This document shows positions 5,343 through 28,651 of a stretch of 32,000 nucleotides of DNA, one piece after another. This stretch comes from Thermofilum adornatum (GTDB taxonomy: Archaea; Thermoproteota; Thermoprotei; Thermofilales; Thermofilaceae), in assembly GCF_000446015.1 (NCBI RefSeq), contig NC_022093.1:1710001-1742000 (forward strand), given 5' to 3'. The position numbers were made by a program, and so were the translations under genes. The stretch's first letter is position 1, and every line of letters begins with the position of its first letter. Under the pieces are notes generated by a model, which ran no database searches, was not told where the DNA came from, and saw nothing but the letters and a program-made list of their open reading frames with translations.

Positions 5343-5345
5343 GAC

Positions 5346-10135: not shown

Positions 10136-10717
10136 CTAAGCCAGTTCTTTGTCTATATTCCTGTAAATTTTCTCAGCTGTAAGCTTCAATAGACGATCAT
10201 AACTTCCACTAGTGATACCTAGGCTGTTCGCGAAAACCTCTTCATCTATCGTAAAGTAACTCTCCATCATGTTTGACAGCAACCATCCACATGCTTGTAT
10301 GATTGCCTTTACCTGATTGGAATTTGAATGGCTATGCCTTACAATTTCTTGAGAAAGAATGAACATAAGCATGATAAGCATCCTAGGCGGGATGCCTATC
10401 TTTATTAGATCAAAAGTCAACCTGGCGATTCTAACTGTATGTTCTTCGCTGAAGTCTCCTTTAAACATCTCATCTAATATGTTTTCCAAAATACCTCTAA
10501 CGTATCCAGGTTCAAGCCCCCTCTCGCGAAATATTCGGGCTAACTCAGAGTTCTGCAGAAGGGAATACATACAGGCATGAACAATTTCATCCTTACTTAA
10601 ATTGACCATATGAGACATATCGTGGAGAGTTGTCTTAGTCTGATTATTTATCCCGAGTAGAAGACTCGAGTATAACCCATTTTTTAGTATTTTCTCTCGC
10701 AAACTCATGAATCTCAC
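10136..10717 (-). CDS. sensor-globin-fold protein, paralogue of 9385..9939
   Basis: It shares blocks with its neighbour: SLLLGI, F(K/Q)(G/S)D(F/Y)xEEH..(V)RIARL....I(K)IGIPP, CGW..SNMMESY, and LGITSGSYDRLLKL versus TGISEEVYNRLVDI. No His at the position I align with the proximal His. Confidence 0.5.
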   Translation of the reverse strand: MRFMSLREKILKNGLYSSLLLGINNQTKTTLHDMSHMVNLSKDEIVHACMYSLLQNSELARIFRERGLEPGYVRGILENILDEMFKGDFSEEHTVRIARLTFDLIKIGIPPRMLIMLMFILSQEIVRHSHSNSNQVKAIIQACGWLLSNMMESYFTIDEEVFANSLGITSGSYDRLLKLTAEKIYRNIDKELA

Positions 10718-12884: not shown

Positions 12885-13653
12885 CTAAATACGCCTCGAT
12901 AACCCTCTTATCTGACACAACTTCGTCCGGCTTCCCCTCTGCCAATAGCTGGCCGTTGTGGAGGACATAGACGTAGTCCACGTACTGCATCATCACCTCT
13001 ATTCTATGCTCCACTATTAGGAATGTGTAGCCGTTAGCATTAAGCTCCCTCACAAGCCTAAACAGGTTGTGTGCCGCTGTGGCCTCTACGCCGGCTGCCG
13101 GCTCGTCTAGCAAGAATACTCTTGCAGGCGTCATAAGGCCCCTAATGGTTTCTATGAGCTTCATGTGTGCCCCGCTCAGCTCTGAAACCCTTACGTTTGC
13201 ATATTCTAGGAGGCCAAACCTATTTAGTAGTTCGATGGCCTTTTTTGCAAGCGCTTTCTCTTCTTCCTGCCAAGTCTCAGGGTTGATAGCTTTCAATGGA
13301 TGCTCGCCTTTCTGGCCGAAGGGGGTCAACAGGAGGTTTTCGAGGACTGTTAGGGACTTGAACAAGCGTGGTATCTGGAAGGTCCTCACTATGCCCTTTG
13401 CAAACACCTCGTTGGGGTTTAGGCCGTCTATCCTCTCGCTGTTGCCTCCATTGTGGTACCAGACCTCCCCCTTGTCAGGCACATAGAAGCCAGAGACCAC
13501 GTTGAAGAGTGTCGTCTTTCCACTGCCGTTGGGGCCTATAAGGCCGACAACGCCTCTCTCTGGCACGCTTATACTTACATCTTGCAAAGCTACGATCCCT
13601 CCAAAAGTCTTAGTTACATTGTCTACCTCTAGGATGTTAGCCACTTTTCTCAC
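12868..13653 (-). CDS. livG: LIV-type ABC transporter ATP-binding protein, LivG-like
   Basis: The TKTFGGIVAL motif, Walker A GPNGSGKTT, Walker B FLLDEPAAGV and C-terminal VIEAYLG are typical of LivG. Confidence 0.9.
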   Translation of the reverse strand: MRKVANILEVDNVTKTFGGIVALQDVSISVPERGVVGLIGPNGSGKTTLFNVVSGFYVPDKGEVWYHNGGNSERIDGLNPNEVFAKGIVRTFQIPRLFKSLTVLENLLLTPFGQKGEHPLKAINPETWQEEEKALAKKAIELLNRFGLLEYANVRVSELSGAHMKLIETIRGLMTPARVFLLDEPAAGVEATAAHNLFRLVRELNANGYTFLIVEHRIEVMMQYVDYVYVLHNGQLLAEGKPDEVVSDKRVIEAYLGDANA

Positions 13654-14683
13654 CCTTTACCTCTTCTTCATATACCTTCCATGCAGGTGTCTCTATCTTT
13701 CCCTCCTTCAGGATTCCCTGAGGACGGAAAAGGAGGACAACAACGATCAAGAAGCCTACCAGGAATCCTCTGATATAGTCGGGTGAGATAATTGTTATGC
13801 CGAGCTGTGGCGTCACAAAGGCGAGGAGCCTGTCAAAGAGAGTAAAGATAGCGGCACCTAGAAGCGAACCTTCAAGGTTGCCCATACCTCCAAGAATTAT
13901 CATTGCCCAAACATTGAATGTAACTGCAGGAACAAATATGTCTGGATTAATTGAGCTATAGTAAAAGGCTAAGAGTACACCGGCCATACCAGCGAAACCC
14001 GACCCAATAAAGAGAACCATTGCCTTAAGCCTTGGTACGTGTTTGCCTAGGCACAGTGCAGCTATCTCGTCATCTCTTACTGCCCTTAGTGTTCGCCCGA
14101 GTGGCGAATTGTAGAGACGGCGAAATACAAAGTAAGTAAGTGCTAGAAGAGCCAATACGATAAATAGGTAGAGCAATGCCCTCAGCGTTGGATTAGGTAC
14201 CCAGGCAAATGGGTGCGGAATAGACATTATGCCCTTGCTTCCTCCTAGTGGCTCATAGTGTTGGACAAAGATCCTGAAAAGCTCGCCTGTACTAAGTAAT
14301 GTGAAGCCTACAAATGCCGGTCCAACCCTTATAATTGGATAGCTAAGGAGATACCCTACTATGCCGGCTACCAGAAAAGCTAAAACCAATGATGCTACCA
14401 GTAGTCCTATATCGAGAATAGGATTCTTCGTAGCTAGTTCGCCTAGAAGCACAATTCCCTCGATATCAAAGGGTGAAACTTTAGATGTATCTACACCGCT
14501 AAGCAAAAGGAAAAGGTAAACCGTCAAAGCTGCACCGATATAGGCTCCGAGGCCATAGAAAAACACCTTTCCAAAGTTTGTCACACCGCTAGTGCCAGAC
14601 TCGAAGTTCAGGCTTACAGCGAGTATACCATATATCCCTAAGAACGTAAGCCAGCTTATCAGGAAACCAACCACATCTATCAT
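13637..14683 (-). CDS. livM: LIV-type ABC transporter permease, LivM-like
   Basis: A polytopic membrane protein of 348 aa. It holds the LivM position in the operon and has the TNFGKVFFYGLGAY-type N-terminal block. Confidence 0.85.
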   Translation of the reverse strand: MIDVVGFLISWLTFLGIYGILAVSLNFESGTSGVTNFGKVFFYGLGAYIGAALTVYLFLLLSGVDTSKVSPFDIEGIVLLGELATKNPILDIGLLVASLVLAFLVAGIVGYLLSYPIIRVGPAFVGFTLLSTGELFRIFVQHYEPLGGSKGIMSIPHPFAWVPNPTLRALLYLFIVLALLALTYFVFRRLYNSPLGRTLRAVRDDEIAALCLGKHVPRLKAMVLFIGSGFAGMAGVLLAFYYSSINPDIFVPAVTFNVWAMIILGGMGNLEGSLLGAAIFTLFDRLLAFVTPQLGITIISPDYIRGFLVGFLIVVVLLFRPQGILKEGKIETPAWKVYEEEVKGEKSG

Positions 14684-14689
14684 CTGGCT

Positions 14690-15655
14690 TCACCCCCTTT
14701 TTCTCCTATACCTGAATGGTAAACCACCAGCTGCGCCAAGAGGTGGAAAAGCAATCAAGATAACAATCAATGTTACAAATGTCAAGAAGGTTCTAAAGCT
14801 AGTTGGGACACCGAACCAAGCATTCAGGAAACTAATGCCGACATTCTCTATGAGGGCAATCACGAATGCTCCAATGCCTGTCTTAACCAATGAGACCAGC
14901 CCCCCGATAAATGCAACGGTGAAGACTTGTAGAATCATAGCGTCGCCGGTTGTAGGCGTGACTGTTCCCGAGAAACTTGTCCAAATTGCTCCACCTATCC
15001 CGACTATGCCGCCCGTTATCAGCCATGTAACAGTTATTACCTTGTTCCTGGGTATCCCAGAAATCTCGGCCAAGACCGGGTTGTCTGCAACGGCGCGCAT
15101 CGCTTTTCCCAGCGAGGTTTTATTCAGGAAAAAGTAGAGAAATACAACCATGCCGACAGCTGCCACAAGAACCGCAATGAAGCCGCCAGACAACCTTAGG
15201 CCCCCTATCGTGATTTCTGGTACGTCATTATAGAGTATTCTCCCATACGAGACAAAGTTGACCCCGCTAAGTGCGTGTGCTATGTCAGCCAACATGTAGA
15301 GGACATAGTTGTACATTATCCAGAGACCCATCGACGCTATCATTATGAGAGACATTGAAGCTCCTCTATCACTAAGGGGTTTAAAGACAAAAATGTGACT
15401 AGCAACAGCAAGCGTCCCAGAAACGAGGAACGCCAGTAGGCACGATAAGAGAAGGCTCTGGTTGCCAAGCAAGCCATTAAGAAATACGGCTACATAGGCT
15501 CCGTAGGTTATAAAATTGGCGTGGGCAAAGTTCATGACCCGCGTCGTTCGATAGCTAAGGGTAAGGGGTACGGCAAAGAGTAGATAGAAGAAAGAGTAAA
15601 AAAGAAAATTTATTATTGTGTTTTGGTCAAGTGGTAGCATATATTGTTGCTTCAC
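14690..15655 (-). CDS. livH: LIV-type ABC transporter permease, LivH-like
   Basis: A polytopic membrane protein with VMNFAHANFITYGAY (LivH-type N-terminal block). It follows the binding-protein gene by 1 nt. The start could instead be the internal Met (MLPLDQ). Confidence 0.85.
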   Translation of the reverse strand: MKQQYMLPLDQNTIINFLFYSFFYLLFAVPLTLSYRTTRVMNFAHANFITYGAYVAVFLNGLLGNQSLLLSCLLAFLVSGTLAVASHIFVFKPLSDRGASMSLIMIASMGLWIMYNYVLYMLADIAHALSGVNFVSYGRILYNDVPEITIGGLRLSGGFIAVLVAAVGMVVFLYFFLNKTSLGKAMRAVADNPVLAEISGIPRNKVITVTWLITGGIVGIGGAIWTSFSGTVTPTTGDAMILQVFTVAFIGGLVSLVKTGIGAFVIALIENVGISFLNAWFGVPTSFRTFLTFVTLIVILIAFPPLGAAGGLPFRYRRKRG

Positions 15656-15656
15656 C

Positions 15657-16949
15657 CTATGGGTATGGTTTCTCGGTGAATATTATTTGTCCATTCTGGT
15701 AGAAGCCGACGTCTTTGAAGTCGTAGCCAGCGCCAGTCTTTACTATGGCCCATACGCCGTAGTCCTGGTTTGCCTTGTCACCAGCGCTGTCAAAGATCGT
15801 CCAGCCACTTACACCGTAGTAGTGCTTTGCAACTTCCACCAGGGCGTTCCTAATTGCATTGCCGTCGTTGCTTCCAGCCCTAAGGATTGCCCAGCCCGCA
15901 ACCTGGACTGCGTCGTACAAGTTGTCACAGAAGACTGTGGCATCTACCCCATACTTCTCCTTAAGTTTCTGTTTGAACTCTTCATAGAGAGGATTCGCTA
16001 CAAAAAGCGGACGTGTTCCCAGAAGCTTAACCTTTGCAGCAAAAGCTCCAACGGCAGGTGTCTTAAGCTCTGCTGCTCCATGCGGGCCCTCCGATAGGAA
16101 CCATCTAACACTAGAGAGAATAGACGACTCTGCAGCGTGGGAAAGTATGTTTCCGCCGTCCGTGTCGAATGAGATTAATACAACAGCATCGGCTTGCTCA
16201 GTCTGAACCTTGCTCGCAAGGCTGTTAACGTCCGCCGCATAGTCAGAAAGGTCTGGCTGATAAGGCATGTCGACAACTTTCCCGCCAAATTGCGTAAATG
16301 CCTTTGAAAAGAAGTCGGCAAACGCGTTTCCATACTCGTCGTTCCTGTGGAAGACTATTACTTTTCTTGCACCCTCCTGGAAAGCAAGGGTTGCGAGGAC
16401 TTTTGCTTGGCCAGCGTCAGAACCGACGGTCCTGAATATAAAATCGTTGGGTATCGCGAGTGTTGGCGCGGTCGAGGATGGAGAAATTATTACTATCTGG
16501 TTGCTGTCTGCAAAGCTTTTTACTGCTTTGACCTGAGAGCTTGCAGCTGGCCCGATGACCACCTTTATTCCTTGCTGTGCAAGCGTCTGGACATTTGATA
16601 CGGCCTTGTCAACAGATGTGCCATCATCCAATATAACAGCCTTAAACTCGACATTGAAGCCGTAGGCCTGCACCTCCTTGTTCAAGTCCTCTATAGCCAT
16701 CTGTGCAACTTTTTCCCAGATTTTACCTATAGATGAAAGAGAGCCAGTGAGTGGGAGAGTGAAGCCTATCTGTATAACTTTTTTAGATGCCGAGGGTTGT
16801 CCTCCAGCGGGTTGCTGGGGCTGTCCTTGCTGGGGACCAGCGAAGAATCCCGAGGCGGCGAAGCCAATGGCCATTCCAACTATAAGTGTAACAATAACTG
16901 CGGCGATGAACTGTACGCTAAACTTAGATTTTCCTGCTTGTTGTGTCAT
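15657..16949 (-). CDS. LIV-type periplasmic-binding-fold substrate-binding protein, N-terminally membrane-anchored
   Basis: Type-I PBP (LivK/Peripla_BP_6-like) body. I trimmed it to ATG 16949 (MTQQAGKSKFSVQFIAAVIVTLIVGMAIGF..), which is preceded by GGGGGAG. A TM anchor is followed by a Q/P/G linker (GPQQGQPQQPAGGQPSASKK). Confidence 0.8.
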   Translation of the reverse strand: MTQQAGKSKFSVQFIAAVIVTLIVGMAIGFAASGFFAGPQQGQPQQPAGGQPSASKKVIQIGFTLPLTGSLSSIGKIWEKVAQMAIEDLNKEVQAYGFNVEFKAVILDDGTSVDKAVSNVQTLAQQGIKVVIGPAASSQVKAVKSFADSNQIVIISPSSTAPTLAIPNDFIFRTVGSDAGQAKVLATLAFQEGARKVIVFHRNDEYGNAFADFFSKAFTQFGGKVVDMPYQPDLSDYAADVNSLASKVQTEQADAVVLISFDTDGGNILSHAAESSILSSVRWFLSEGPHGAAELKTPAVGAFAAKVKLLGTRPLFVANPLYEEFKQKLKEKYGVDATVFCDNLYDAVQVAGWAILRAGSNDGNAIRNALVEVAKHYYGVSGWTIFDSAGDKANQDYGVWAIVKTGAGYDFKDVGFYQNGQIIFTEKPYP

Positions 16950-17169
16950 GTGTTCTCCCCCTTGGGGGATGTAGTACAGCGATATGTAGGCTATATATGT
17001 CTTTGCCAAATATCTTCGCAGAAAATTGCAAAACAAAGGTAAGAATTTTGAAAAAAGTGTCAAGAACATCTTTGAATATGTGTAAAACTTACCATTAGAA
17101 TATGCATATCAGTAATGCTTATAAAAGAGCCCCTAAAATTGCCGATAAATATATTTAGCGAAACTTTAT

Positions 17170-18132
17170 TTAATACTCTCTTGATTTGGTCAATACGTTT
17201 AGAGGTTTTTCTCCTCTAAGGTATCTTGCTATGTTTTCTGCAGCGAACCTGAGGCATTTCTCCCTGGATTTCTTTGTCCATCCTGCCTTGTGGGGCGTAG
17301 CTATAACATTTGGGAGCCTGTGGACACCTATACTTGAGGGGTAGCCTTGGCTTGGCGGATAGGTCCACCATACGTCTATGCCTGCCCCGGCTATCCAGCC
17401 TTGTGTCAGGGCTTTGTATAATGCGTGTTCGTCTATAACGGGGCCCCGGCCTATGTTTATGATATAGGCTGTTTTCTTCATTGACTTTAGTTCTTCTTCT
17501 CCTATGAGGCCTCTCGTCTCTCGTGTCAGCGGGAGAGCTATTACTGCATAGTCTGCCTGGGAGAGAGCCTCTTTGAGCTTGTCTTGTCCGTAGCATTCGT
17601 CGCAGTACTCGTCTCTTTCTGGGTTCTTCTTGACAGCTACTACTTTCATGTTGAATGCCTTTGCTATCCTCGCTATCTCTCTGCCGATATTGCCGTATCC
17701 AACGATGGTTAGTGTTGAGCCTTCAAGGTCTAGTAAGAAGTTTTCCTCTGTGTAGCTTCTCCACTTGCCGTTCTTTACCTCGTAATCCTGCTCTACAATT
17801 TTCTTGGCAAGTGAAAGCATGAGTGCGAAGGCGTGCTCTGCTACTGCCCTGGCGTTACAGCCCTTGGCCGTGGCAACCATGACGTTTCTATCGAACAGGG
17901 CCTCTAGGTCTAAGTTGTCTGCGCCAGCCGCGGGAACCTGGACAAACTTAAGTTTTCCCGCTCTCTTGATTGCCTCCCTTGGCAAGGTAACAGCCATAGC
18001 TATGGACGAGTCTTCTAGGCCAGAAAAGTCGGCACCGCTCCAGTAGAGAATCTCGATTTTTCCGCCTAGAACGTCCTCAATTATCCTCTTTTCCCACTCG
18101 GCAAGCCTCAAATAAACAAACAACCTCTCCAC
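17170..18132 (-). CDS. D-isomer-specific 2-hydroxyacid dehydrogenase (NAD-binding)
   Basis: Rossmann motif VGYGNIGREIARIA, then NIGRGPVIDEHAL, DVWWTYP and TPHKAGWT (catalytic His region). GTG start. Confidence 0.88.
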   Translation of the reverse strand: MERLFVYLRLAEWEKRIIEDVLGGKIEILYWSGADFSGLEDSSIAMAVTLPREAIKRAGKLKFVQVPAAGADNLDLEALFDRNVMVATAKGCNARAVAEHAFALMLSLAKKIVEQDYEVKNGKWRSYTEENFLLDLEGSTLTIVGYGNIGREIARIAKAFNMKVVAVKKNPERDEYCDECYGQDKLKEALSQADYAVIALPLTRETRGLIGEEELKSMKKTAYIINIGRGPVIDEHALYKALTQGWIAGAGIDVWWTYPPSQGYPSSIGVHRLPNVIATPHKAGWTKKSREKCLRFAAENIARYLRGEKPLNVLTKSREY

Positions 18133-18310: not shown

Positions 18311-19840
18311 TTATTTTTTGGGCTTTCTCCTAAGCAGTAAAACTGTAGCTAACACTATCACTAATACAATTATAGCCAGGACAATGTACAGAGTAAAGTC
18401 TTGTGCAGGCTGTTGTGGCTGAGCGGGTTTCGTGGGCTGTGTTGGCTGTTGTTGTGCTGGTTGTTGTGGCGGATACAGGTTGACCTCTACTGGGGGTGTA
18501 ACGCTTTTAACTGTGTCTATGTATTGTGGAGCAAACATTCCAATTTTGAGGAGGGGCTTGTAGAGGTCTGGTAGATCCTGCTCGGTATAGTATTTGGCAA
18601 GAGAGGTTGTATCCCACACTATTTGTGCAATATACATGTCCTGTACTGTTCTGTGGTCTTCTTTTCTTATCTTTATGTCTCCCTTCACAGATGTAAATGT
18701 GAGGCCTTCAAGCGCGTTGATTAGTTTTTCAGAGTCTGTTGAGCCGCCGGTCTTCTTTAATGCTAGTCCAAGCGCATGGCCAGCCACGAATCCCTCGCCG
18801 ACAAAAAGGTCTGGCAAGGGGAAGGCTATGAGGACTGAGCCCATCGTTGGAAGTGCTTTTTTCTTGTAGAGTTCAACATACTTTGAGACAAGCCAGTCGT
18901 TGACTGGGTTATTCTGTGGTAGGTTCCAAGCATACTTCATCATTCCCTTGTAGTTGGGCAGGTATAGGCCCATTTTTAATAGGTTCAGGGTTGCTAGGTC
19001 TGGTATGCCTGAGGTGACTTTCATCTTTTGGTAAACTCCTGAAGCGTTTATCTGTTGGTAGAGTGTTAGAGCTGTTGCTCCACTCCATACGGGAATGAAT
19101 ACCTCTGCCTTTGAGGCCAGGAGAGACTGGATGTAGGGCGTAAAGTCAGTGGTTGTTACGGGGGCATATATTGCGGCGACAACGCTTCCTCCTTTCTGTT
19201 GAATGATTGTTGACCAGGCATCGACAGTAGAGCGTCCCCAGGAGTTGCTCGGTGCTAGGAATGCAACTGTTTTGCCGAGGGTGGTGGCAAATGTTCCACC
19301 TGCAATTGCGTCGTGCCAAGTTGTACTTGAAATCTGGAAAACGTACCTGTTTAGGTAGGTCTTGGTTATCTCGTGGTCAGCGGCAGGGACAACCAAGAAT
19401 ACGACCTTGTATTTTTGGGCTATCTGTGTGAGGGCGATAGCTGACGGGCTGTCTGAACAGCCTACGAGTATCTCGGCTCCCTTGTTTTGTATCAAGTCCT
19501 CTGCTGCTTTTGTAGCTGTGGCTGGGTCTGGGATTTGCTGGCCGGCTGGAACATTGGTTGCCGCTATGATGTGTATTGTTTTGCCTTGCCAGTTAAGTTT
19601 CCATTCTAGGTTTGGCGTAACTGTCTCGAAGCTCGGTATCTCTAGCGCGTACATGAGTCCAAGAATGAAGCCGTTAATTGACATGTCGCCATAGTAGCTT
19701 AGTGCACCTGTCCTGTCGGTAACGATGCCTATAACGATTTCATTGGGGTTCTGGGCCTTGACGTTTATTGGTACAAAGGCTAGTGCTATTAGTGCTATCA
19801 AGAGGAGGGAGAGACTTTTAGCTCGTTCTTTTGTTGTCAT
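18311..19840 (-). CDS. LIV-type substrate-binding protein with signal peptide and C-terminal Q/P linker plus TM anchor
   Basis: N-terminal signal-like LSLLLIALIALAFVPINVKAQNP and a type-I PBP-sized body. The C-terminus is PPQQPAQQQPTQPTKPAQPQQPAQDF, then TLYIVLAIIVLVIVLATVLLL, then RRKPKK. Confidence 0.8.
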   Translation of the reverse strand: MTTKERAKSLSLLLIALIALAFVPINVKAQNPNEIVIGIVTDRTGALSYYGDMSINGFILGLMYALEIPSFETVTPNLEWKLNWQGKTIHIIAATNVPAGQQIPDPATATKAAEDLIQNKGAEILVGCSDSPSAIALTQIAQKYKVVFLVVPAADHEITKTYLNRYVFQISSTTWHDAIAGGTFATTLGKTVAFLAPSNSWGRSTVDAWSTIIQQKGGSVVAAIYAPVTTTDFTPYIQSLLASKAEVFIPVWSGATALTLYQQINASGVYQKMKVTSGIPDLATLNLLKMGLYLPNYKGMMKYAWNLPQNNPVNDWLVSKYVELYKKKALPTMGSVLIAFPLPDLFVGEGFVAGHALGLALKKTGGSTDSEKLINALEGLTFTSVKGDIKIRKEDHRTVQDMYIAQIVWDTTSLAKYYTEQDLPDLYKPLLKIGMFAPQYIDTVKSVTPPVEVNLYPPQQPAQQQPTQPTKPAQPQQPAQDFTLYIVLAIIVLVIVLATVLLLRRKPKK

Positions 19841-19910: not shown

Positions 19911-20927
19911 TTATATCCAGCGGAAGATTGCGCTTGCCATGACGAAGCCTACTCCAGAAGTGATGAACTGTATGTAGTCTCCCTTCTTAATCTTGCCCTG
20001 TGTTAGAGTATCGTGTAGAGCCATGAATACGCAGGCAGATCCAGTGTATCCATATTTCTCCATGATGGTTGGGGCCTTCTCGATTGGCTGTCCAAGTAGC
20101 CTCATCAGCTGGTGGATCATCTCTCTGTTTACCTGTGTGACGAAGTAGTAGCTTATGTCGTTGGCTGTTAAATTTGCCTTTTTCTGTACCTCTTGTGCGA
20201 GTCCTGGCCAGTGGCGAAGGTTTATGTCGGGTGGATACCTTTTAAGGTACCTCAGCTTGTGCCATCCCTCCTTTACGACGTTCTCGTTTACTGGTCTTGC
20301 ACCCCCTATGTATATGCCCCAGTAGTCTGTATAACTACCATCCGCAATTATTTTTCCAGTAATGTAGCCAGGTTCACTTGATGGGCCAAGAATGACGGCT
20401 CCAGCTCCGTCAGAGAAAATGGAGGCAGTCACGTCTTGTGGGTCAATAAATTTGGTCATCGTGTAAGGTGAAACTACCAAGACATAGTTGACGTCTTCGT
20501 TGAGCATGATGTTCTGTGCCGCAAGCATGAGGGCTATTGTGTTGTCTGCACAGGCCGCGTTTATGTCGAAGCCTCCCGTTTTTAGTTTTGCGCCTAGCTT
20601 CTGGTGAACTGCACAAACTGTTGGTGGGGTCTGGAAGTCTGGGGTATCTGTTGCGAATATGATAAGGTCGATATCGTCTATAGTGAGGTTGGCGTTTTGA
20701 AGAGCCATTCTAGCGGCTTCTGCGGCTAGATCCGAGGGGGCCTGGTCTGGCGCAGAGACGTATCGGTGTTTGATGCCTATGCGGTTTTCTAGTGCATTTC
20801 TCCATGCATCGGGGAGCTTGAGACCAAAGAACTTTTCATAGTCATCGTTAGTTACTAGTGTTTTTCCAAGGGCTATGCCCGTGCTCACTATCCTGGCATA
20901 TTTTTTTATTTCAGGCTTCGTAGCCAT
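19911..20927 (-). CDS. KAS III (FabH)-like thiolase-fold enzyme with atypical catalytic residues
   Basis: FabH-like blocks ATDTPDFQTPPTVCAVHQKLG, FDINAACADNTIAL (active-site Cys retained), SDGAGAVILG and the C-terminal GVGFVMASAIFRW. The start is ATG 20927, or TTG 20930 as in the track. Confidence 0.75.
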   Translation of the reverse strand: MATKPEIKKYARIVSTGIALGKTLVTNDDYEKFFGLKLPDAWRNALENRIGIKHRYVSAPDQAPSDLAAEAARMALQNANLTIDDIDLIIFATDTPDFQTPPTVCAVHQKLGAKLKTGGFDINAACADNTIALMLAAQNIMLNEDVNYVLVVSPYTMTKFIDPQDVTASIFSDGAGAVILGPSSEPGYITGKIIADGSYTDYWGIYIGGARPVNENVVKEGWHKLRYLKRYPPDINLRHWPGLAQEVQKKANLTANDISYYFVTQVNREMIHQLMRLLGQPIEKAPTIMEKYGYTGSACVFMALHDTLTQGKIKKGDYIQFITSGVGFVMASAIFRWI

Positions 20928-20963
20928 CAAAATACTCTGGGAAAAATCCTATAAAATAAAAAC

Positions 20964-20970
20964 GGTTAAC
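20964..20970. promoter_or_regulatory. GGTTAAC half-site abutting the TATA-like tract of the KAS III-like gene promoter
   Basis: The minus strand reads GTTAACC-GTTTTTATTTTATAGG.. with ATG at 20927, 37 nt from the motif end. Confidence 0.5.
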
Positions 20971-20983
20971 TATTTCCCGAAAC

Positions 20984-22213
20984 CTAAAAGATGCTTTCGA
21001 TCTTTCTCTTGAGCTTCCAGCCTTTAAGCAACCATGTACCGTATATACCGTAAGGTAATGCCAGGACAACTATTATGTAGAGGAGTCCGAGAATAAAGCT
21101 GGGGAAGAGTTGCAGTTGTTGGAGTGACAGGAAGCCTAGTGATATGAGTGCTGGAGTTATCGTTGAAAGGTAGTCTCTAAGGAAGCCAGCAAGGATACCG
21201 CCAATAGCTGGTCCAACGAATGTGCCGAGACCACCCAGTATAGCACCAGTCATGGCAATGAAGGTCTTATCGGTTGCGAAGACGTCTGGCTGGATTGTAG
21301 GTATGCAGGCGACGTACACGCTTCCGGCTACCCCTGCAAAGACGCCTGAAATAAAGAAAGCTATTAACTGGTGGAGAAAAACGTTGTAGCCTATAACAGA
21401 TGCCCTTACCGGATTCTCCCTTATTGCTATAAATGTGCTTCCCAGAGGGGATGTGATGATTCTCTTAATCAACAGATATGATATGTAGAGGCTAAGGAGA
21501 GAGACTAGGTACACGTTAAGAGGATATACAAATCGCAGGATTCTTACATAAGGAAGACCTGAACCTACTTCATGGAGGAATGTTGCCGAGGAGCTAAAGA
21601 TTACGTACCCACTATAACCTAAGAAGATAAAGAGCAATAAGACAATCAGTGTTTTGAGAACTTTCTGGCGTTTCCGCTTTGTGCTAATGATGTCTATCAT
21701 CCCGGTCACAAGTGATAGAGCAAGAAATATTGTGAAGAGGGCGAGGTAGAGGTACAGCCCTTCAAGTGAAGCCATCTCAGGTATCGTACCTACCGTCACA
21801 GCAACAGTGGTTTGGGCAGAGTACTCAATAGTAGCTCTAATGGCTTCCGAAATAGCAAGCGTTAAGATACCATAGTACAGTCCCCTAACACGGTAGCCGG
21901 GAAGACCCATGCCGACATAAACAGCTCCCGAAATAAGTGCGGCGGGAATAAGAGATAGAAGGAACGGGACACCCTGCTTGAGAAGCACCGCCGTAATAAA
22001 GGCAGCAACACCGAATGGAACTGCGTGCCCGAAGCTTGGGATTCCCGCGAAACCCAAAACTATGTTGTAGCTTAGTGCAAGTAGAGCCCATACAAATGTC
22101 AGGGGAATGCCTGTAGCCAGTGACCTGTCTAGCCATGGAATGGCAAGGAGTATTGTTAAGGACAAGTATCCAAGAAACCTATTAGGCAACAAGTAGTTCC
22201 TTAGTTTCTCCAT
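20984..22213 (-). CDS. livM: LIV-type ABC transporter permease, LivM-like (long form)
   Basis: A polytopic membrane protein of 409 aa in the LivM position of operon 2. The conserved C-terminal half reads SPLGSTFIAIRENPVRASVIGYN... Confidence 0.85.
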   Translation of the reverse strand: MEKLRNYLLPNRFLGYLSLTILLAIPWLDRSLATGIPLTFVWALLALSYNIVLGFAGIPSFGHAVPFGVAAFITAVLLKQGVPFLLSLIPAALISGAVYVGMGLPGYRVRGLYYGILTLAISEAIRATIEYSAQTTVAVTVGTIPEMASLEGLYLYLALFTIFLALSLVTGMIDIISTKRKRQKVLKTLIVLLLFIFLGYSGYVIFSSSATFLHEVGSGLPYVRILRFVYPLNVYLVSLLSLYISYLLIKRIITSPLGSTFIAIRENPVRASVIGYNVFLHQLIAFFISGVFAGVAGSVYVACIPTIQPDVFATDKTFIAMTGAILGGLGTFVGPAIGGILAGFLRDYLSTITPALISLGFLSLQQLQLFPSFILGLLYIIVVLALPYGIYGTWLLKGWKLKRKIESIF

Positions 22214-22217
22214 TTTC

Positions 22218-23090
22218 TCACCTCTTGAATAATCCTTCTGGTTTAACCACTAGGACAACTATCATGACTATGAGATCTATCGCAAAGCCCAGTTGGGGTA
22301 TAAAGTAGGCTACAAGCCTGTCGACAAATCCTATCAGTAGACTCGCATAGAAGGCTCCCGAATAACTTTTCATGCCTCCTACCACGGGGATAGCGAATGC
22401 TAGAAGTGAAAAGTGGACAGGGAGCTCTATGGTTGCATGCGTCAGTGGAGCAACTAGTGCGCCACCCAGTAGTGCCAGGGCGACGCCAAATGTAAATGCA
22501 GACGTGAAGAGCATCGAGATATCTACACCGAAGACTGTAGCGAGCTCTCGGTTCTCTGTCCCCGCCCTAAGCTTTATACCAATCATGGTTTTTGAAAGAA
22601 GTGTACTCATGGTGCCGAATAGGACAAATCCAATCGCTATAAGAACAAACTTATAGATCCTTATCCTGACATCTGCTAGCTGTATATATCCTGACAACAA
22701 GAAGTTTTGAGTCTCCGGAAATACGAGCCCTGTTGGCCATATTAGTTGCATAAAGGTATACAATAGAGTCATTAGTCCCATGGTAAGTAGTAATTGTGCT
22801 AATGGATTCCCGTATACCGGCCGTATTATTGCTCTCTCGGTTAGAAGACCAAGGACTATCCCTATAAGAAAAGTTAACAATAGGCTCAACAGGAAGTTAT
22901 TCGTCATGTAATAAAACGTCACAAAGAGATATGCTCCTAGTCCAAAAAAGGCGCCCTGTGCTAGGTTAAAGACATCCATTAAGCCAAAAATAATCACAAG
23001 TCCTATGGCTGCAAGGTAGATCATTGATGAATAAGTCAACCCGTCTATAACTGCGCTTAGAATCAATTCAGGTGAAACCATATCCACCAC
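22218..23090 (-). CDS. livH: LIV-type ABC transporter permease, LivH-like
   Basis: A polytopic membrane protein of 290 aa with the FNLAQGAFFGLGAY block. It directly abuts the livF-like gene. Confidence 0.85.
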   Translation of the reverse strand: MVDMVSPELILSAVIDGLTYSSMIYLAAIGLVIIFGLMDVFNLAQGAFFGLGAYLFVTFYYMTNNFLLSLLLTFLIGIVLGLLTERAIIRPVYGNPLAQLLLTMGLMTLLYTFMQLIWPTGLVFPETQNFLLSGYIQLADVRIRIYKFVLIAIGFVLFGTMSTLLSKTMIGIKLRAGTENRELATVFGVDISMLFTSAFTFGVALALLGGALVAPLTHATIELPVHFSLLAFAIPVVGGMKSYSGAFYASLLIGFVDRLVAYFIPQLGFAIDLIVMIVVLVVKPEGLFKR

Positions 23091-23852
23091 CTATAAGCTT
23101 ACACCCAGGATTCTCCTTATTACATGATTGTTTTCTTCTATTTTTTCCGAGGGAAAACCTGTCACCACAACACCTTTATCCATCAGGTAAATGTAATCTG
23201 TTATTTCGCGGGCGTAAGCAAAGTTCTGTTCAATCAATAGTATTGTCTTCTTATTTTCAAGCATGTAGTGCCTCAGCTGCCTGTAGAAGTTTTTAACATA
23301 AGCTGGGCTTAGACCCTCAGATGGCTCATCTAGTATGAGAAGATCATGCTCCCTTACCAGTCCACATGCAAGTGCAAGCATTCTTTGCTGACCGCCGCTA
23401 AGTTCTCCTGCTAGGAGGCCAGAGAACCGTTTAAGCTCTGGGAAAAGATTCATTACCATTTCAAGCTTGTCGTCGAATTTTTCCTTTGGGCCATTATAGG
23501 CTAGCTTAAGGTTCTCAATGACGGTAAGGTTTGCAAATACATTTTTCTCTGCTGGGACAAAACTTATTCCCCTCTTGACTATGCTATGCGTTGGGAAATT
23601 AGTGATGTTCTCTCCTTTGAAAAACACTTCTCCCCTAGCTGCCTTATATATTCCCATTATTGTTTTTAGAGTTGTTGTTTTTCCCACGCCATTTCTACCT
23701 AGAATGGCCGTGAGCTTGTATTCTTCCGCTTCGAAGTTTACTCCTTGAAGTATATGGAAGCCGCCTATATATGCATGAAGATCCTTTACTTTCAGAATTG
23801 GAGACGCCACATCATTCACCCAGGTAGATTTTCTGAACCTCCCTATTCTCAA
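23091..23852 (-). CDS. livF: LIV-type ABC transporter ATP-binding protein, LivF-like
   Basis: Walker A GRNGVGKTT, signature LSGGQQRML, Walker B LILDEPSEGLSP. The start is uncertain: ATG 23852 gives a 41-nt overlap with livG, while in-frame GTGs at 23819 or 23810 give a short or no overlap. Confidence 0.88.
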   Translation of the reverse strand: MRIGRFRKSTWVNDVASPILKVKDLHAYIGGFHILQGVNFEAEEYKLTAILGRNGVGKTTTLKTIMGIYKAARGEVFFKGENITNFPTHSIVKRGISFVPAEKNVFANLTVIENLKLAYNGPKEKFDDKLEMVMNLFPELKRFSGLLAGELSGGQQRMLALACGLVREHDLLILDEPSEGLSPAYVKNFYRQLRHYMLENKKTILLIEQNFAYAREITDYIYLMDKGVVVTGFPSEKIEENNHVIRRILGVSL

Positions 23853-24564
23853 CTATCTCTTTGGGAGACCCTTCCGCGAGAATACTTCCCTGATTCATTA
23901 CGCTGACTTTGTCTGCTACTTCGAGAACAACATCTATTTTGTGCTCGATCACTACAACTGTTTTCTTCATTTCGTCTCTCAGCTTTTTAATGAGACGTAC
24001 AATTGGTGCTACCTCCTCTAGAGATACGCCGGCCGTGGGCTCATCTAATGCTATGAGCTTTGGGTTTCCAGCAAGGGCAATAGCGATTTCTAGTTTCCGT
24101 TTGTCGCCTGGGGTGAGGCTACTTGCCAAAATGTTTGTCTTGCCGTAGAGGCCAGTTATGGAGGCAATCCGCATGGCTTCCCAGACAACATCTTTGTAAT
24201 GGCTTGTTGGATGAATGAAGTCCCATCTCACGTTTTTCCATTTTGCTTGGACAGCAAGCCTTATGTTTTCGAGAACAGTAAGGTTTGGGAAAATCGAATA
24301 TATTTGGAAAGACCTTGTTAGACCCAGGGAGCTAATGTAGTGAGGGGGTTTACCAGTTATATCTCTGTCCTCAAAATACACTTTACCACTTGTAGGTTTG
24401 AGGACTCCAGTAATCAAGTTAAATAGCGTTGTTTTCCCAGCACCGTTGGGACCTATTATAGCATGAACCGTGCCCTGCGCCACCTTCAGGTTAACATTGC
24501 TGACAGCTACGAGTCCACCGAAGCTCTTTGTGAGATTTTCTGTGCGTAGAATTATGCCTGACAT
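23812..24564 (-). CDS. livG: LIV-type ABC transporter ATP-binding protein, LivG-like
   Basis: TKSFGGLVAV, Walker A GPNGAGKTT, Walker B LIALDEPTAGV and the C-terminal QKIYLGE. Confidence 0.9.
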   Translation of the reverse strand: MSGIILRTENLTKSFGGLVAVSNVNLKVAQGTVHAIIGPNGAGKTTLFNLITGVLKPTSGKVYFEDRDITGKPPHYISSLGLTRSFQIYSIFPNLTVLENIRLAVQAKWKNVRWDFIHPTSHYKDVVWEAMRIASITGLYGKTNILASSLTPGDKRKLEIAIALAGNPKLIALDEPTAGVSLEEVAPIVRLIKKLRDEMKKTVVVIEHKIDVVLEVADKVSVMNQGSILAEGSPKEIVENREVQKIYLGE

Positions 24565-24565
24565 G

Positions 24566-25345
24566 TTAGATGCCCCTGAAAAATTCTAGCAATAATTGGT
24601 TGTATTCTTCGGGTCTTTCCCTGTGGGGCATGTGTCCTACGCCTTTCATTATGTGCGCCTTTGAGGTAGGCACCATGGCGTGCATTTCTTCGACGACCTC
24701 TGGTGGGGATATGTAGTCTAGCTCTCCAGAAATGAAGAGAACAGGGTTCCTAAGTGATCTGATTATGTCTCTGTAGCTTTTTTCTGTCGCAGCTTCAGCG
24801 CTCTGTATGTAGACACGTTTATCAGTTCGTGAGATTATCTCATAGATTTCTCGTTTTAATTCGGTAGATGCGTATGGCGACACAGCGAACTCAGCTACTT
24901 GGCTGGCTATTTCATGCATAGACATGTTTTCAAGAACTTCTGTCATTGCTGGTGGGTATTCAGGTGCAATGGCTTCGAGGACAATCTTCTCAAATCTTTG
25001 TAGATACAAGCGGTAAAGCTCTAGCAGGACTAGGCCGCCCATTGAGTAGCCTACCATGAGCGCTTTCTCTATCTTTTCGGCTTCGAGGACGCTTTCTACG
25101 TCTCTAGCAAAATCCTCCATTGATATCCTTTTTGGGGGAATCTGGCTTTCGCCGTGCCCGCGAAGGTCTAGTGCTAATACCCTGTACCCCCTAGCTGGGA
25201 AGAACTCTAACTGGGGTTTCCATGTAAGATGGCTTTCGCCCAAGCCGTGTACGAAGATTATTGGTGTTCCATTTCCTTCAGCAACATAGTGTATCTTTAT
25301 ACCGTCTTTTGATTTTGCATACCTGTGCTCTAATCCCTGCGACAT
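24566..25345 (-). CDS. alpha/beta-fold hydrolase
   Basis: HGLGES oxyanion region, nucleophile elbow GYSMGG, then a late Asp (GELDYI) and His (GVGHMP). 1-nt gap to livG. Confidence 0.85.
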   Translation of the reverse strand: MSQGLEHRYAKSKDGIKIHYVAEGNGTPIIFVHGLGESHLTWKPQLEFFPARGYRVLALDLRGHGESQIPPKRISMEDFARDVESVLEAEKIEKALMVGYSMGGLVLLELYRLYLQRFEKIVLEAIAPEYPPAMTEVLENMSMHEIASQVAEFAVSPYASTELKREIYEIISRTDKRVYIQSAEAATEKSYRDIIRSLRNPVLFISGELDYISPPEVVEEMHAMVPTSKAHIMKGVGHMPHRERPEEYNQLLLEFFRGI

Positions 25346-25347
25346 TT

Positions 25348-26145
25348 TTATTTCACCTCTCCCTTAAGAAAATTCGACACCAGTACATTAATTTCGCCCG
25401 GTTTTTCCCAAATAGAGACATGCCCACTTTCAACTTCAGCATATTTTCCATTGGGAAGCTCCTCAACTATCAACTTGGAGTATCTAGGCGGGAAGAATCT
25501 GTCATGAGTGCTGGCAACAACAAGAGTTGGCATTGTTAGTTTGGAGAGCTTTCCCCTCAGATCGAGCCTAAGAAAAGCTTTAATCATCTCTTCGAATGCT
25601 ACCATGTCTACAAGCTCGAAGTTAGGTGCCAAAGAAGAAATAAAGGAGAAACTGTTATTGATGAACTCGTCTGAGAATATGTCCGGAATCATTACTTGCC
25701 ACAGGAATCTACCTGACTTAAGCCGTGCCGCCAAAATCCACCTGTCGGCACGCAGTCTCAAGGCCTTGTCTACGGTGTGCGACGAATTTAGAATTACGAG
25801 TTTTTCGACTTGCTCGGAGAAGGCTAGCGCAGTAGCCAATGCTACTTTTCCGCCATAAGAGATGCCTGCAAGCGTAAAAGTGTTAATGCCCAAGTAATCT
25901 AACAGTTCCTTCAAGTCAGAAACATGTCTATCAATACTATAACCTGTCCTCGGCTTATCACTTTGTCCCTGACCACGCATATCATGTAGAACTACCTTAT
26001 AGCCTAGGTTCCTCAGATATTCTGCTTGAAGCCTCCATCCTACAGTATTCATCGTTATGCCATTGAGTAGCACTACCGTCTTTTCCCCTTCACCTTCGAC
26101 CTCGTAATAGATCTTTATACCGTCCGTTGTAGTGAAATACGCCAT
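25348..26145 (-). CDS. alpha/beta-fold hydrolase (distant tandem paralogue)
   Basis: Nucleophile elbow GISYGG, Asp region STHDRF, His region ESGHVS. It shares the N-terminal DGIKI(H/Y)Y block with its neighbour. Confidence 0.85.
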   Translation of the reverse strand: MAYFTTTDGIKIYYEVEGEGEKTVVLLNGITMNTVGWRLQAEYLRNLGYKVVLHDMRGQGQSDKPRTGYSIDRHVSDLKELLDYLGINTFTLAGISYGGKVALATALAFSEQVEKLVILNSSHTVDKALRLRADRWILAARLKSGRFLWQVMIPDIFSDEFINNSFSFISSLAPNFELVDMVAFEEMIKAFLRLDLRGKLSKLTMPTLVVASTHDRFFPPRYSKLIVEELPNGKYAEVESGHVSIWEKPGEINVLVSNFLKGEVK

Positions 26146-26150
26146 GGATC

Positions 26151-27722
26151 CTACACCTCTAACTTGTCTTCAGGTTTTCCATAAAGGATTTTAAGAGGCT
26201 GGCGAGCCACCTTCCCAGTCTCCGTGTAGACAAGTTGGGGAACAACTTCTACATACTTTGGTATTTTGTATTTCGCGAGCTTGTCTTTCAAGAAATCTAT
26301 GACTTCTTCTTTCGTTATCTTTTCTCCCTCCTTAAGTACAATCAATGCCTTTGGAACCTCCCCCCACTTGGGGTCAGGGACTCCTATAACCACTGCATCC
26401 TTAATCTTTGGATGCATAATCAAAAGCCTCTCAATTTCTTCTGGATACACGCTCTCTTCACCACTCCTAATGATGTTCTTAATTCTCCCAGCTATCCAGA
26501 AATAGCCTTCCTCATCTACCCTAGCAACGTCTCCCGTAGCCAGCCATCCATCCTTTATAATAGACTTCATCTCTTCCTCGTTTTTCAGGTATCCTGAAAA
26601 CACGCTTGGACCCCTTAGGTACAGCTCGCCCTCAACACCTCTGGGAGCCTCACTTCCATCTGGAAGAACAACCCTGGCCTCTATCAATAGGTTCGGTTTC
26701 CCAATCGACCCCATTTTCCTCTTAGCGTCCCATGGATCGAGAGCAAAAATACCTGGACCCATCTCGGTCATCCCAAAACCTTGTTTCTGGACAACACCCT
26801 TCTCAAATATTTTCTCGATGATGTCTGGCGTTAACGCTCCCCCGCCGCTTGTAAACCACCTAACGGATGAAAAGTCTGCGTCCTTGAAACGGGGCGAAGC
26901 AAGCAACATCCTAAGTTGCGTCGGAACCAGGAAGAGAAATGTTGGTCTCTCCTCTTCTACGAGGTCAATAAACCTATCAACATTCCATCTTCGCATTAGA
27001 ATACTTGTCCCTCCAAACATTAATAGAGGGATTAGATATGTGAAGGCACCAATGTGGAAGAGAGGTAACGTGTTGATTGTGACGTCGCCAGGTATAACCA
27101 AGTCCCTAACAGTGTTCAAGGCGTTCCAGAGAATCATCCTGTGACTTACTATTGTAAATTTTGGCTTTCCAGTTGTTCCACCAGTTTGTAGTATTAGGGC
27201 GGGGTCTTCGAGGCAACACGCCGTCGAGACATCATTGGAAGAGTATTTCTCATAATTAAACTCGTTTGGACAGTCATAGCACACTTTCTTCGTCTCTATG
27301 TTAGAGACGGTTTCTGAAAATTCTTTTTCATATAGGAGAACTTTTGGATTGACTTTATCAACAAACTCTTGAATTTCACGTGAAGTGTACCTCGTGTTTA
27401 TAGGAGCTAGGACACAGCCAATCTTGAAACATGCAAGAAGCGTGGCAACAAACTCTATGCGGCTCCACGAAAGAATAGCTACATAATCTCCCTTGCTTAT
27501 TCCGAAATTTTCCCGAAGAAAATTAGCAATCTTGTTGGACATCTCGTTTAGCTGTGCAAAGGACACCGTACGTAAGGGTATCGTTAGGTCGTCCTTGAGT
27601 GCTATCCAATTACCACTTATATCTGCTCTACGAGCTATCCAGTTGTTGACCCATTTTCCACACGTATAGATTCTCTCCAGAGACATATAATGCATGTTAA
27701 TAGGTGAAATCGTGTTATACAT
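26151..27722 (-). CDS. AMP-forming acyl-CoA synthetase/ligase (ANL superfamily)
   Basis: AMP-binding motifs TGGTTGKPK, GFGMTE, WLATGDV and GRIKNIIRSGEESVYPEEIE. The start is ambiguous between Met1, Met10 and Met13 (see findings). Confidence 0.9.
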   Translation of the reverse strand: MYNTISPINMHYMSLERIYTCGKWVNNWIARRADISGNWIALKDDLTIPLRTVSFAQLNEMSNKIANFLRENFGISKGDYVAILSWSRIEFVATLLACFKIGCVLAPINTRYTSREIQEFVDKVNPKVLLYEKEFSETVSNIETKKVCYDCPNEFNYEKYSSNDVSTACCLEDPALILQTGGTTGKPKFTIVSHRMILWNALNTVRDLVIPGDVTINTLPLFHIGAFTYLIPLLMFGGTSILMRRWNVDRFIDLVEEERPTFLFLVPTQLRMLLASPRFKDADFSSVRWFTSGGGALTPDIIEKIFEKGVVQKQGFGMTEMGPGIFALDPWDAKRKMGSIGKPNLLIEARVVLPDGSEAPRGVEGELYLRGPSVFSGYLKNEEEMKSIIKDGWLATGDVARVDEEGYFWIAGRIKNIIRSGEESVYPEEIERLLIMHPKIKDAVVIGVPDPKWGEVPKALIVLKEGEKITKEEVIDFLKDKLAKYKIPKYVEVVPQLVYTETGKVARQPLKILYGKPEDKLEV

Positions 27723-27916: not shown

Positions 27917-28651
27917 ATGATGTACATTGGAGTGTTCGACATTGAGCAATATGATTGCCCCGTTGTTAAATTGACCGAGAAAAGAGAAGGCGTTACAACA
28001 ACAGTTCTATCAGTAAATGTATCTGAACTTTCAAGGGGAGTAGAGCAGATCTTTTTAACAATTAAGAGTTCCGAGCAGGACAAGCTTAAGGACATTCTAG
28101 AAGTCGCGCAAACAATTCCCGAAGTAAAGAACTGTAAAGTACTTGGGAAGTCTGACGATGCATGGAGAATACTCATGAACATTAAAAAGACACATACAAT
28201 GGAGGCTAGTGTAAATCTTGGTGCAATGTTTGTTTCTCCGTGGATTGCGAGAAGCGGCGTTGAGAGGTGGACCCTAGGCTTCATAAGTAAGAAACAGTTC
28301 TACGATTTTCTGTCTTTGATCAGGGAAAGAGACCATGTAAAGAAATACTACTTGACAGAGGTAAAGGAGGAGGACTTTGTAACTGTTTCTGCAAACTATC
28401 TATCTATACTTAAATTGGTTTCGCAACTGAACAAGCTGACCCCCAATCAGCTGAACATGTTAAAGCTGGCTTTGTCTAAGGGATATTATTCGTGGCCGAA
28501 GGGGGTTGATAGCGTTGAACTATCAAGAATGCTAGGCGTTTCTCGTGTGAGTATAATTAAGTCGCTTAGGAAAGCTGAATACAAGGTGCTAGGTCCCGTT
28601 GTAGAATTTGTGTCAATGGTTAAGAAAGATTGGGAGAAAAACTACACTTAA
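27917..28651 (+). CDS. HTH_10 (bacterio-opsin-activator-type) transcription regulator
   Basis: The C-terminal LTPNQLNMLKLALSKGYYSWPKGVDSVELSRMLGVSRVSIIKSLRKAEYKVL matches the HTH_10 pattern LTxrQrevLxxAyexGYFexPRxxxxxeLAexLGisxstxxehLRrAexKl. The N-terminal ~165 aa are unassigned. Confidence 0.75.
   Translation: MMYIGVFDIEQYDCPVVKLTEKREGVTTTVLSVNVSELSRGVEQIFLTIKSSEQDKLKDILEVAQTIPEVKNCKVLGKSDDAWRILMNIKKTHTMEASVNLGAMFVSPWIARSGVERWTLGFISKKQFYDFLSLIRERDHVKKYYLTEVKEEDFVTVSANYLSILKLVSQLNKLTPNQLNMLKLALSKGYYSWPKGVDSVELSRMLGVSRVSIIKSLRKAEYKVLGPVVEFVSMVKKDWEKNYT

Follow-up and report, generated by a model that had tools for sequence, protein, structure and literature searches.

What could an enzyme of the β-ketoacyl-ACP synthase III type (KAS III, or FabH) be doing in an archaeon without an acyl carrier protein (ACP)? 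The question is raised by a gene in the 32,000-nucleotide stretch of Thermofilum adornatum DNA that we analyzed (NC_022093.1, positions 1,710,001 to 1,742,000 of the forward strand; herein the window, with coordinates counted from its first letter). An initial annotation made from the letters alone had described the product as KAS III-like along its whole length, with the catalytic Cys kept and the His-Asn pair apparently lost. Our analysis suggests that the protein carries a carboxylate-cysteine pair, with Tyr and Thr in place of His-Asn, and that it is most likely a CoA-dependent, non-decarboxylating acyl-cysteine enzyme within a module for the import and breakdown of an organic acid or ester. 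The gene is as follows.

Positions 19911 to 20927, minus strand: gene for a KAS III (FabH)-fold protein of the Cys/Asp/Tyr ("CTY") clade, ATG start, 338 amino acids.

Two start codons are available. With a TTG start, the open reading frame (ORF) spans positions 19911-20930 of the minus strand and encodes 339 amino acids; ATG is the next codon (20925-20927), and since close homologues and the ESM Atlas record begin at ATG, the 338-residue product is the likely one. Pfam recognized both ACP_syn_III (1.3e-15, 57.5 bits) and ACP_syn_III_C (4.2e-25, 88.2 bits), and a Thiolase_N match was marginal (25 bits, below the cut-off). The NCBIfam FabH models aligned end to end and scored under their curated cut-offs (NF006829, 200.3 vs 249; TIGR00747, 185.7 vs 292.1), and none of the curated NCBIfam models claims this protein. 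Searches with phmmer against solved structures gave full-length alignments with FabH (4dfe, 6.8e-41; E. coli 1hn9, 2.7e-36). An AlphaFold model computed with 36 relatives as input had a predicted local distance difference test (pLDDT) score of 94.5 and a predicted template-modelling (pTM) score of 0.93. This model matched FabH structures with template-modelling (TM) scores of 0.87-0.93, and its top structural matches were all FabH, BioZ or PqsD (TM 0.84-0.93). Neither phmmer nor the structure-match searches found a solved structure within the protein's own subgroup, and the ESM Atlas returned generic "ketoacyl-ACP synthase III" clusters only. The likeness to KAS III along the whole length is thus borne out by Pfam, phmmer and the predicted structure.

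The active site was mapped in a MAFFT alignment of E. coli FabH (from NC_000913), the 36 relatives and 24 canonical FabH representatives, and conservation was counted across 202 non-identical relatives pooled in one alignment. The codons of the residues discussed below are these.

Positions 20646 to 20648, minus strand: Asp95, aligned with E. coli FabH Thr81 and with the catalytic Glu of 3-hydroxy-3-methylglutaryl-CoA (HMG-CoA) synthase; acidic in 202 of 202 relatives.
Positions 20550 to 20552, minus strand: Cys127, the putative nucleophile, aligned with E. coli FabH Cys112; kept in 202 of 202 relatives.
Positions 20463 to 20465, minus strand: Tyr156, family-specific, two residues before the acyl-pocket position Leu142/Met158; 199 of 202 relatives.
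Positions 20220 to 20222, minus strand: Asn237, family-specific, aligned with E. coli Ala216 of the pantetheine tunnel; 198 of 202 relatives.
Positions 20136 to 20138, minus strand: Thr265, in place of FabH His244 (phmmer and alignment).
Positions 20046 to 20048, minus strand: Tyr295, in place of FabH Asn274 (phmmer and alignment).

The nucleophile sits in an N-A-A-C motif, as in FabH, and its alignment with Cys112 upholds the retention of the catalytic Cys. The loss of the His-Asn pair is equally supported: phmmer placed FVTQVN below xPHQAN and GYTGSAC below GNTSAAS, the MAFFT alignment gave the same replacements, and these are conserved in 198 of the 202 relatives each. In the column of E. 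coli Thr81, Asp was found in 36 of 36 relatives, and Ser, Val, Cys or Ala in canonical FabH. Much of the surrounding scaffold is that of FabH, including the G-x-G oxyanion loop (Gly305/Gly307 in E. coli numbering) and the adenine-stacking Trp32; E. coli Leu142 corresponds to Met158 here, and the Phe87 position is Thr or Ser in the family. Arg151 of the E. coli enzyme is lost, Lys214 is replaced by Asp and Arg249 is variable. In FabH, Arg249 and Lys214 are basic residues for ACP docking. In BioZ, Arg39 and Arg153 contact CoA (PMC12625853), and we take these to be equivalent to E. coli FabH Arg36 and Arg151, a mapping that is ours and absent from the BioZ paper. All six residues that mark the clade (Asp/Glu95, Cys127, Tyr156, Asn237, Thr/Asn265 and Tyr295) are present in this protein. 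With such a predicted active site, the protein cannot carry out malonyl-decarboxylating condensation of the FabH type.

Several alignments relate Asp95 to HMG-CoA synthase. When the genome's own HMG-CoA synthase was added to the alignment, the Glu of its G-S-E-S motif fell on Asp95, and profile-profile alignment (hhalign) against 15 archaeal HMG-CoA synthases placed A-T-D-T on G-T-E-S with a probability of 99.2%. The His column of HMG-CoA synthase is Thr here in the same profile-profile alignment, and the HMG-CoA synthase models (TIGR00748/NF003274) scored under their cut-offs (66.2 bits vs 244 for the archaeal model, and 37.8 vs 353). In HMG-CoA synthase, this Glu also assists when the acyl-enzyme is hydrolyzed at the end of the cycle. 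Asp95 and Cys127 are 32 residues apart, and the Glu and Cys of the VirC triad (Glu82/Cys114/His250) have the same spacing (PMC11522927). The same Glu and Cys positions, again 32 apart, have been discussed for PhlA, a non-catalytic KAS III/HMGCS-like subunit of the PhlACB complex in which both residues are lost (PMC6392133).

The replacements are shared by the whole family. Residue 95 is Asp in 198 relatives and Glu in 4, position 295 is Tyr in 198 and His in 4, and position 265 is Thr in 177 and Asn in 21; Trp241 is kept in 199. Among the best 120 matches in a 90%-identity database, Cys and Tyr were found in all, and the His position held Thr (109) or Asn (12). Representatives of 50%-identity clusters showed the Cys-Thr-Tyr pattern at ∼165-276 bits and 32-49% identity, with a clean break from canonical Cys-His-Asn FabH, which begins below ∼160 bits. 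FastTree likewise placed all relatives on one side of a branch with a support of 97 vs canonical FabH. On these alignments, the substitutions are a conserved state and not chance or decay. A pseudo-enzyme or decaying gene was ruled out by this conservation together with 87.6% identity to the copy of a congener. The description of the protein as "Cys-only" has to be revised, since a conserved set of Asp95, Tyr295, Thr/Asn265, Asn237 and Tyr156 accompanies the Cys.

No universally conserved His column was found among the 202 relatives. The commonest, position 287 (177 of 202; window positions 20070-20072), lies eight residues before Tyr295. It is Pro in this protein and its closest relatives, and Pro, Tyr, Val or Ile across its own clade; His at 287 is, by these counts, common yet dispensable in the family. 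Because there is no universal His and 287 is Pro, this protein has no catalytic His in a shifted position. An ordinary FabH that draws its His and Asn from shifted positions, the alternative named in the initial annotation, was ruled out on the same grounds.

Additional evidence came from four paralogues, two from Thorarchaeota loci (L031:281 and L037:1468) and two from Chloroflexota loci (L056:3873 and L076:6413), that share Glu95, His295, Leu/Ile265, Ser237 and Asp300. All four keep Cys127, and this subgroup comes with a ligase of its own. In L076 the paralogue stands beside a Cys-Asp-Tyr copy; in L031 and L037 it stands beside a Liv-type importer. Because Glu95, His295 and Leu/Ile265 switch together, this suggests that the active-site positions work as one functional set. 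Fused forms that might reveal a partner were not found at 595-2000 amino acids.

The absence of ACP, which had been presumed for an archaeon, was confirmed: no PP-binding (ACP) domain was detected in the complete genome (one 1.75-Mb contig, 99.96% complete), and the same search was positive in 11 of 14 control genomes. The gene studied here is the genome's sole full-length KAS III-like gene; the other matches were a true HMG-CoA synthase, its neighbouring thiolase and a thiolase in the window. Within the class, the family was found in two of 120 genomes, namely this one and one congener. Because only these two genomes carry it, the gene is an accessory, transferred trait. In the congener (L102) the nine-gene order described below is kept. 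Between the two operons the KAS III-like protein is 87.6% identical and the binding protein 88.5%, the highest values, and LivM (58.7%) and hydrolase B (64.9%) have the lowest; either constraint is uneven, or genes of the operon have been exchanged in mosaic fashion. In the FastTree phylogeny, archaeal sequences branch among bacterial ones at three or more separate points. Most members of the family are bacterial and its occurrence in archaea is patchy; judging from this tree, it was exchanged between domains, and the gene is no archaeal peculiarity.

Pfam annotation of the neighbours supports the claim that the gene is embedded in a cluster of importer and CoA-ligase genes. On the minus strand the order is ligase, two hydrolases, LivG, LivF, LivH, LivM, KAS III-like gene and binding protein, with these coordinates:

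Positions 27917 to 28651, plus strand: divergent HTH_10 regulator, candidate regulator of the cluster.
Positions 26151 to 27722, minus strand: AMP-forming acyl-CoA ligase, more constant than any other genomic partner of the KAS III-like gene.
Positions 25348 to 26145, minus strand: α/β-hydrolase B, serine nucleophile in G-I-S-Y-G.
Positions 24566 to 25345, minus strand: α/β-hydrolase A, serine nucleophile in G-Y-S-M-G.
Positions 20984 to 24564, minus strand: core of an ATP-binding cassette (ABC) importer, Liv-like permeases and ATPases.
Positions 23812 to 24564, minus strand: LivG-like ATPase.
Positions 23091 to 23852, minus strand: LivF-like ATPase.
Positions 22218 to 23090, minus strand: LivH-like permease.
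Positions 20984 to 22213, minus strand: LivM-like permease.
Positions 20964 to 20970, minus strand: GTTAACC motif ∼37 nt ahead of the start codon, with a T/A-rich, TATA-like tract immediately downstream of it.
Positions 18311 to 19840, minus strand: Liv-type (Peripla_BP_6) substrate-binding protein.

The ligase is nearest to true CoA ligases, with the fatty-acyl/feruloyl-CoA synthetases 8weu/8wev (309 bits) followed by FadD13 and MenE. For both hydrolases the closest matches are metagenomic esterases (5jd6, 4q3l) and the enol-lactonase PcaD, all of them under family cut-offs. The nearest solved relatives of the binding protein are binding proteins from R. palustris, including 4ey3, 4f06 and 4evs, which we take to be binders of aromatic (benzoate-type) acids. 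The KAS III-like gene has its own spacer, which carries the GTTAACC motif. This motif also precedes the binding-protein, ligase and thiolase genes, and there are 8 sites overall vs 3.4 expected.

The region directly downstream (12171-18132, minus strand) encodes another complete Liv-type ABC importer, followed by a dehydrogenase:

Positions 12171 to 12884 and 12868 to 13653, minus strand: ATPases of the second importer.
Positions 13637 to 14683 and 14690 to 15655, minus strand: permeases of the second importer.
Positions 15657 to 17069, minus strand: binding protein of the second importer.
Positions 17170 to 18132, minus strand: D-2-hydroxyacid dehydrogenase, after the second importer.

On the other side of the cluster, positions 28672-30818 of the minus strand hold an archaeal-type thiolase (Thiolase_N and Thiolase_C_1) that overlaps at the stop codon with a short-chain dehydrogenase/reductase (SDR) and has GTTAACC upstream at 30853; the adh_short domain of the SDR begins only at residue 80, after an N-terminal extension to which Pfam assigned no domain. 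Farther from the cluster, we observed a permuted papain-like amidase (Peptidase_C92, YaeF/YiiX family) at 30888-31502 on the minus strand, with the self-complementary GGTTAACC upstream at 31547-31554. NurA, HerA, a Mre11-like phosphoesterase and a Rad50-like ATPase stand in a row at 2044-9022 on the plus strand and form an archaeal DNA end-resection operon. Positions 9029-10717 of the minus strand encode a Roadblock/LC7 protein and then two paralogous ORFs with weak protoglobin matches (24.0 and 25.7 bits vs 25).

Species-representative genomes gave at least 600 matches to the KAS III-like protein, and the best 80 loci were analyzed; the homologue was extracted in 63, which span at least seven phyla and both domains, and the gene was missed by ORF calling in 17 high-GC loci. 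Within 5 kb, the window's ligase family was found in 44 of the 63 loci (as the immediate downstream gene in 25) and its hydrolase family in 41 (as the immediate upstream gene in 22). Less frequent neighbours at the same distance were SDRs (17), TetR regulators (17), an outer-membrane barrel with a carboxypeptidase-regulatory domain (16), MaoC hydratase (14), major facilitator superfamily transporters (11), the Liv-type binding protein (10), thiolases (6 plus 3), enoyl-CoA hydratase (5), class-2 lipase (3), DUF35 (2) and PhaC-like proteins (2). A core unit of hydrolase, KAS III-like gene, ligase and hydrolase recurs in Bathyarchaeia, Thorarchaeota, Acidobacteriota and Chloroflexota as well as in Gemmatimonadota, Thermotogota and Bipolaricaulia.

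A different cassette surrounds the KAS III-like gene in two Thermotogota loci (L007 and L010) and one Chloroflexota locus (L002). It comprises TetR, a thiolase, DUF35, the KAS III-like gene, three SDRs, an enoyl-CoA hydratase, a hydrolase and a binding protein. With thiolase, DUF35 and KAS genes in this order, it is reminiscent of the archaeal thiolase/HMG-CoA-synthase/DUF35 complex. The L002 copy appears to be P0063, a protein with Asn265 (N-Q-V-E, G-Y-A-G-S-A-S).

Based on these residues and neighbours, we propose that a binding-protein-dependent ABC importer would take up an organic acid or ester, the two serine esterase-type hydrolases would act on it, and the CoA ligase would follow. The partner ligase would make the acyl-CoA, and the acyl group would then move from the CoA thioester onto Cys127. 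Asp95 may serve as general base or acid, with Tyr295 and Thr265 donating hydrogen bonds to the oxygen of the thioester or keto group. The subsequent step would be non-decarboxylative carbon-carbon chemistry of the thiolase or HMG-CoA-synthase type. Most likely, a 3-oxoacyl-CoA would be cleaved by thiolysis (retro-Claisen) or formed in the reverse reaction. We infer covalent catalysis, the role of Asp95, and the reaction type, direction and substrate. Reversible Claisen (thiolase-like) or HMG-CoA-synthase-like chemistry within the import-and-breakdown module is favoured, given the catabolic context and the exclusion of malonyl decarboxylation, and we judge the evidence for it to be evenly balanced. 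As for the substrate, the hydrolases, ligase and binding protein are all compatible with an aromatic or aliphatic acid that arrives as its ester or lactone. Breakdown of polyhydroxyalkanoate (PHA) or oligoesters is one candidate class; the hydrolases have weak PHA-depolymerase matches, and PhaC-like and MaoC neighbours occur in two Blastocatellia loci. A menaquinone pathway of the MenE/MenH/MenB kind was considered and rejected, as the MenE and MenH matches of the ligase and hydrolases were far under cut-off and the context is one of uptake.

Several observations weigh against this proposal. True thiolases occur in or near some loci, which would make a second thiolytic enzyme partly redundant, and few of the 63 loci have, at a distance of up to 5 kb, an SDR (17) or a hydratase (14+5) that could produce 3-oxoacyl-CoA. 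HMG-CoA synthase needs a His, and the protein here is without one. Support for placing Asp95 and Tyr295 close to Cys127 extends as far as homology does. Many of the loci come from related Pyrinomonadaceae, hence the neighbourhood counts overstate phylogenetic independence. Lastly, no description of this KAS III-like family was found in the open-access literature; the family is widespread and apparently unstudied.

Other readings of the same evidence have to be weighed. KAS III folds can act as acyltransferases, as in actinomycete secondary metabolism (DpsC, CerJ and ChlB6 type), and the initial annotation drew this comparison. If it applied here, an acyl group would pass from acyl-CoA through Cys127 to a hydroxyl, amine or thiol acceptor, and no carbon-carbon bond would be made or broken. 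The retained Cys, the loss of His and Asn and the adjoining acyl-CoA ligase gene are consistent with such a transfer, but the known KAS III-like acyltransferases differ from this protein, which has no His, no ACP and no polyketide synthase (PKS) context. Making an ester or amide is also hard to rationalize beside importers, TetR regulators, esterases and β-oxidation-type enzymes, and a simple transfer needs no universal carboxylate at the position of the HMG-CoA-synthase base. We therefore regard acyl transfer as unlikely, and the comparison stands as an analogy only, since the operons seen here are those of uptake and catabolism. The Asp/Cys pair at HMG-CoA-synthase positions might instead belong to a thioester hydrolase, in which water activated by Asp95 resolves the Cys127 acyl-enzyme and a free acid is released from a CoA-bound intermediate. 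That reaction would be futile right after an ATP-consuming ligase, the module already has two serine hydrolases able to act as thioesterases, and the strongly conserved Tyr295, Tyr156 and Asn237 point to a more demanding reaction; hydrolysis is accordingly a distinctly improbable answer.

Two further possibilities appear to us very improbable, each to about the same degree. One is a pathway like that of OleABCD, in which an OleA-type head-to-head condensation is followed by an SDR, a β-lactone synthetase and a decarboxylating hydrolase to give olefins, ketones or β-lactones. The domain content is the same (KAS III-like protein, α/β-hydrolase, AMP-ligase family and SDR), and in some Acidobacteriota loci the order SDR, KAS III-like gene, hydrolase, ligase even mirrors OleD-A-B-C. 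Yet OleA structures matched at ∼49 bits vs 143 for FabH (phmmer), and the window's operon is without an SDR. OleA keeps Cys-His-Asn and receives from its partner subunit a Glu (Glu117) that lies close to the position of FabH Phe87, and the nucleophile of OleB is Asp. In the present protein His and Asn are absent, and in its family the region of the OleA Glu holds Thr or Ser. Both hydrolases have Ser and not Asp as nucleophile, the ligase is nearest to CoA ligases among the references compared (OleC was not among them), and importers and TetR regulators dominate the context. The other possibility is a dead FabH relic or a purely structural subunit. PhlA provides a precedent for a non-catalytic KAS III/HMGCS-like subunit (PMC6392133), and thiolase and DUF35 genes adjoin the KAS III-like gene in some Thermotogae loci. 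However, Cys127 and the acidic residue 95 are both kept in 202 of 202 relatives whereas PhlA lost both, few proteins of the operon are as well conserved between the congeners, and the thiolase/DUF35 pair is missing from most loci.

In the thiolase superfamily, a few active-site residues set whether the reaction is a decarboxylative Claisen, a reversible Claisen, an aldol-type reaction or an acyl transfer. The fixed and previously undescribed set Asp-Cys-Tyr-Thr, found in two domains, would consequently imply a new reaction or a new way to a known one. It is possible, and we put it forward tentatively, that the family represents a new catalytic type of this superfamily, in which a FabH-derived scaffold with an independently acquired, HMG-CoA-synthase-like carboxylate-cysteine pair and a Tyr proton donor performs carbon-carbon chemistry on CoA thioesters in an undescribed, mobile catabolic route. 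If so, a horizontally mobile route that uses non-decarboxylative carbon-carbon cleavage or condensation on an imported ester or organic acid would be common to Acidobacteriota, Chloroflexota, Thermotogota, Myxococcota, Asgard archaea, Bathyarchaeia and Thermofilum. That importers, esterases and a CoA ligase so constantly accompany the gene points to what may be an unrecognized nutrient-salvage pathway. The database name "3-oxoacyl-ACP synthase III" is wrong for ACP-free organisms, and through this misnaming fatty-acid synthesis is predicted too often in archaeal genomes, among them those of Asgard archaea and Bathyarchaeia. This work adds the correspondence of Asp95 with the Glu of HMG-CoA synthase, the paralogues in which Glu and His co-vary, the finding that Arg151/Lys214/Arg249 are lost, the ACP-free complete genome and the distribution in two of 120 genomes within the class. 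The proteins from Thermofilum can be expected to be thermostable and easy to handle.

Compared with known systems, the protein shares with FabH the full-length fold, both Pfam domains, the nucleophilic Cys, the oxyanion loop and the adenine-stacking Trp. It differs in Thr for His244, Tyr for Asn274 and an invariant Asp for Thr81, and also in that Arg151/Lys214/Arg249 are not kept, its FabH scores are sub-cut-off, its genome is ACP-free and its clade is separate. HMG-CoA synthase offers the acidic residue 32 positions before Cys, CoA rather than ACP substrates and non-decarboxylative chemistry, but the protein has Asp for its Glu, Thr for its His and Tyr for the following Asn, its sequence is far closer to FabH, and the genome encodes a true HMG-CoA synthase elsewhere. 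Acyltransferases of the DpsC/CerJ/ChlB6 type are similar in having a KAS III fold without decarboxylative condensation and a retained nucleophile. These enzymes retain the His (Cys/Ser-His-Asp) and work with ACPs in polyketide and secondary-metabolite clusters, in contrast to a protein that has no His at the aligned position, no ACP and a context of uptake and catabolism. The OleABCD system has the same set of enzyme families, and non-decarboxylative acyl-CoA chemistry would be expected of both; the weak OleA match, the other catalytic set, the Ser hydrolases, the CoA-ligase-type ligase and the embedded importers set the present module apart. From thiolases (Cys-Asn-His-Cys) the protein is distinguished by its marginal similarity, the lack of a second catalytic Cys at the thiolase position and a Tyr for the thiolase His. 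Even so, it belongs to the same superfamily, 21 of the 202 relatives carry an Asn (motifs N-Q-V-E/D) at the position shared by thiolase Asn316 and FabH His244, and the reversible, non-decarboxylative Claisen chemistry that we propose is that of the thiolases.

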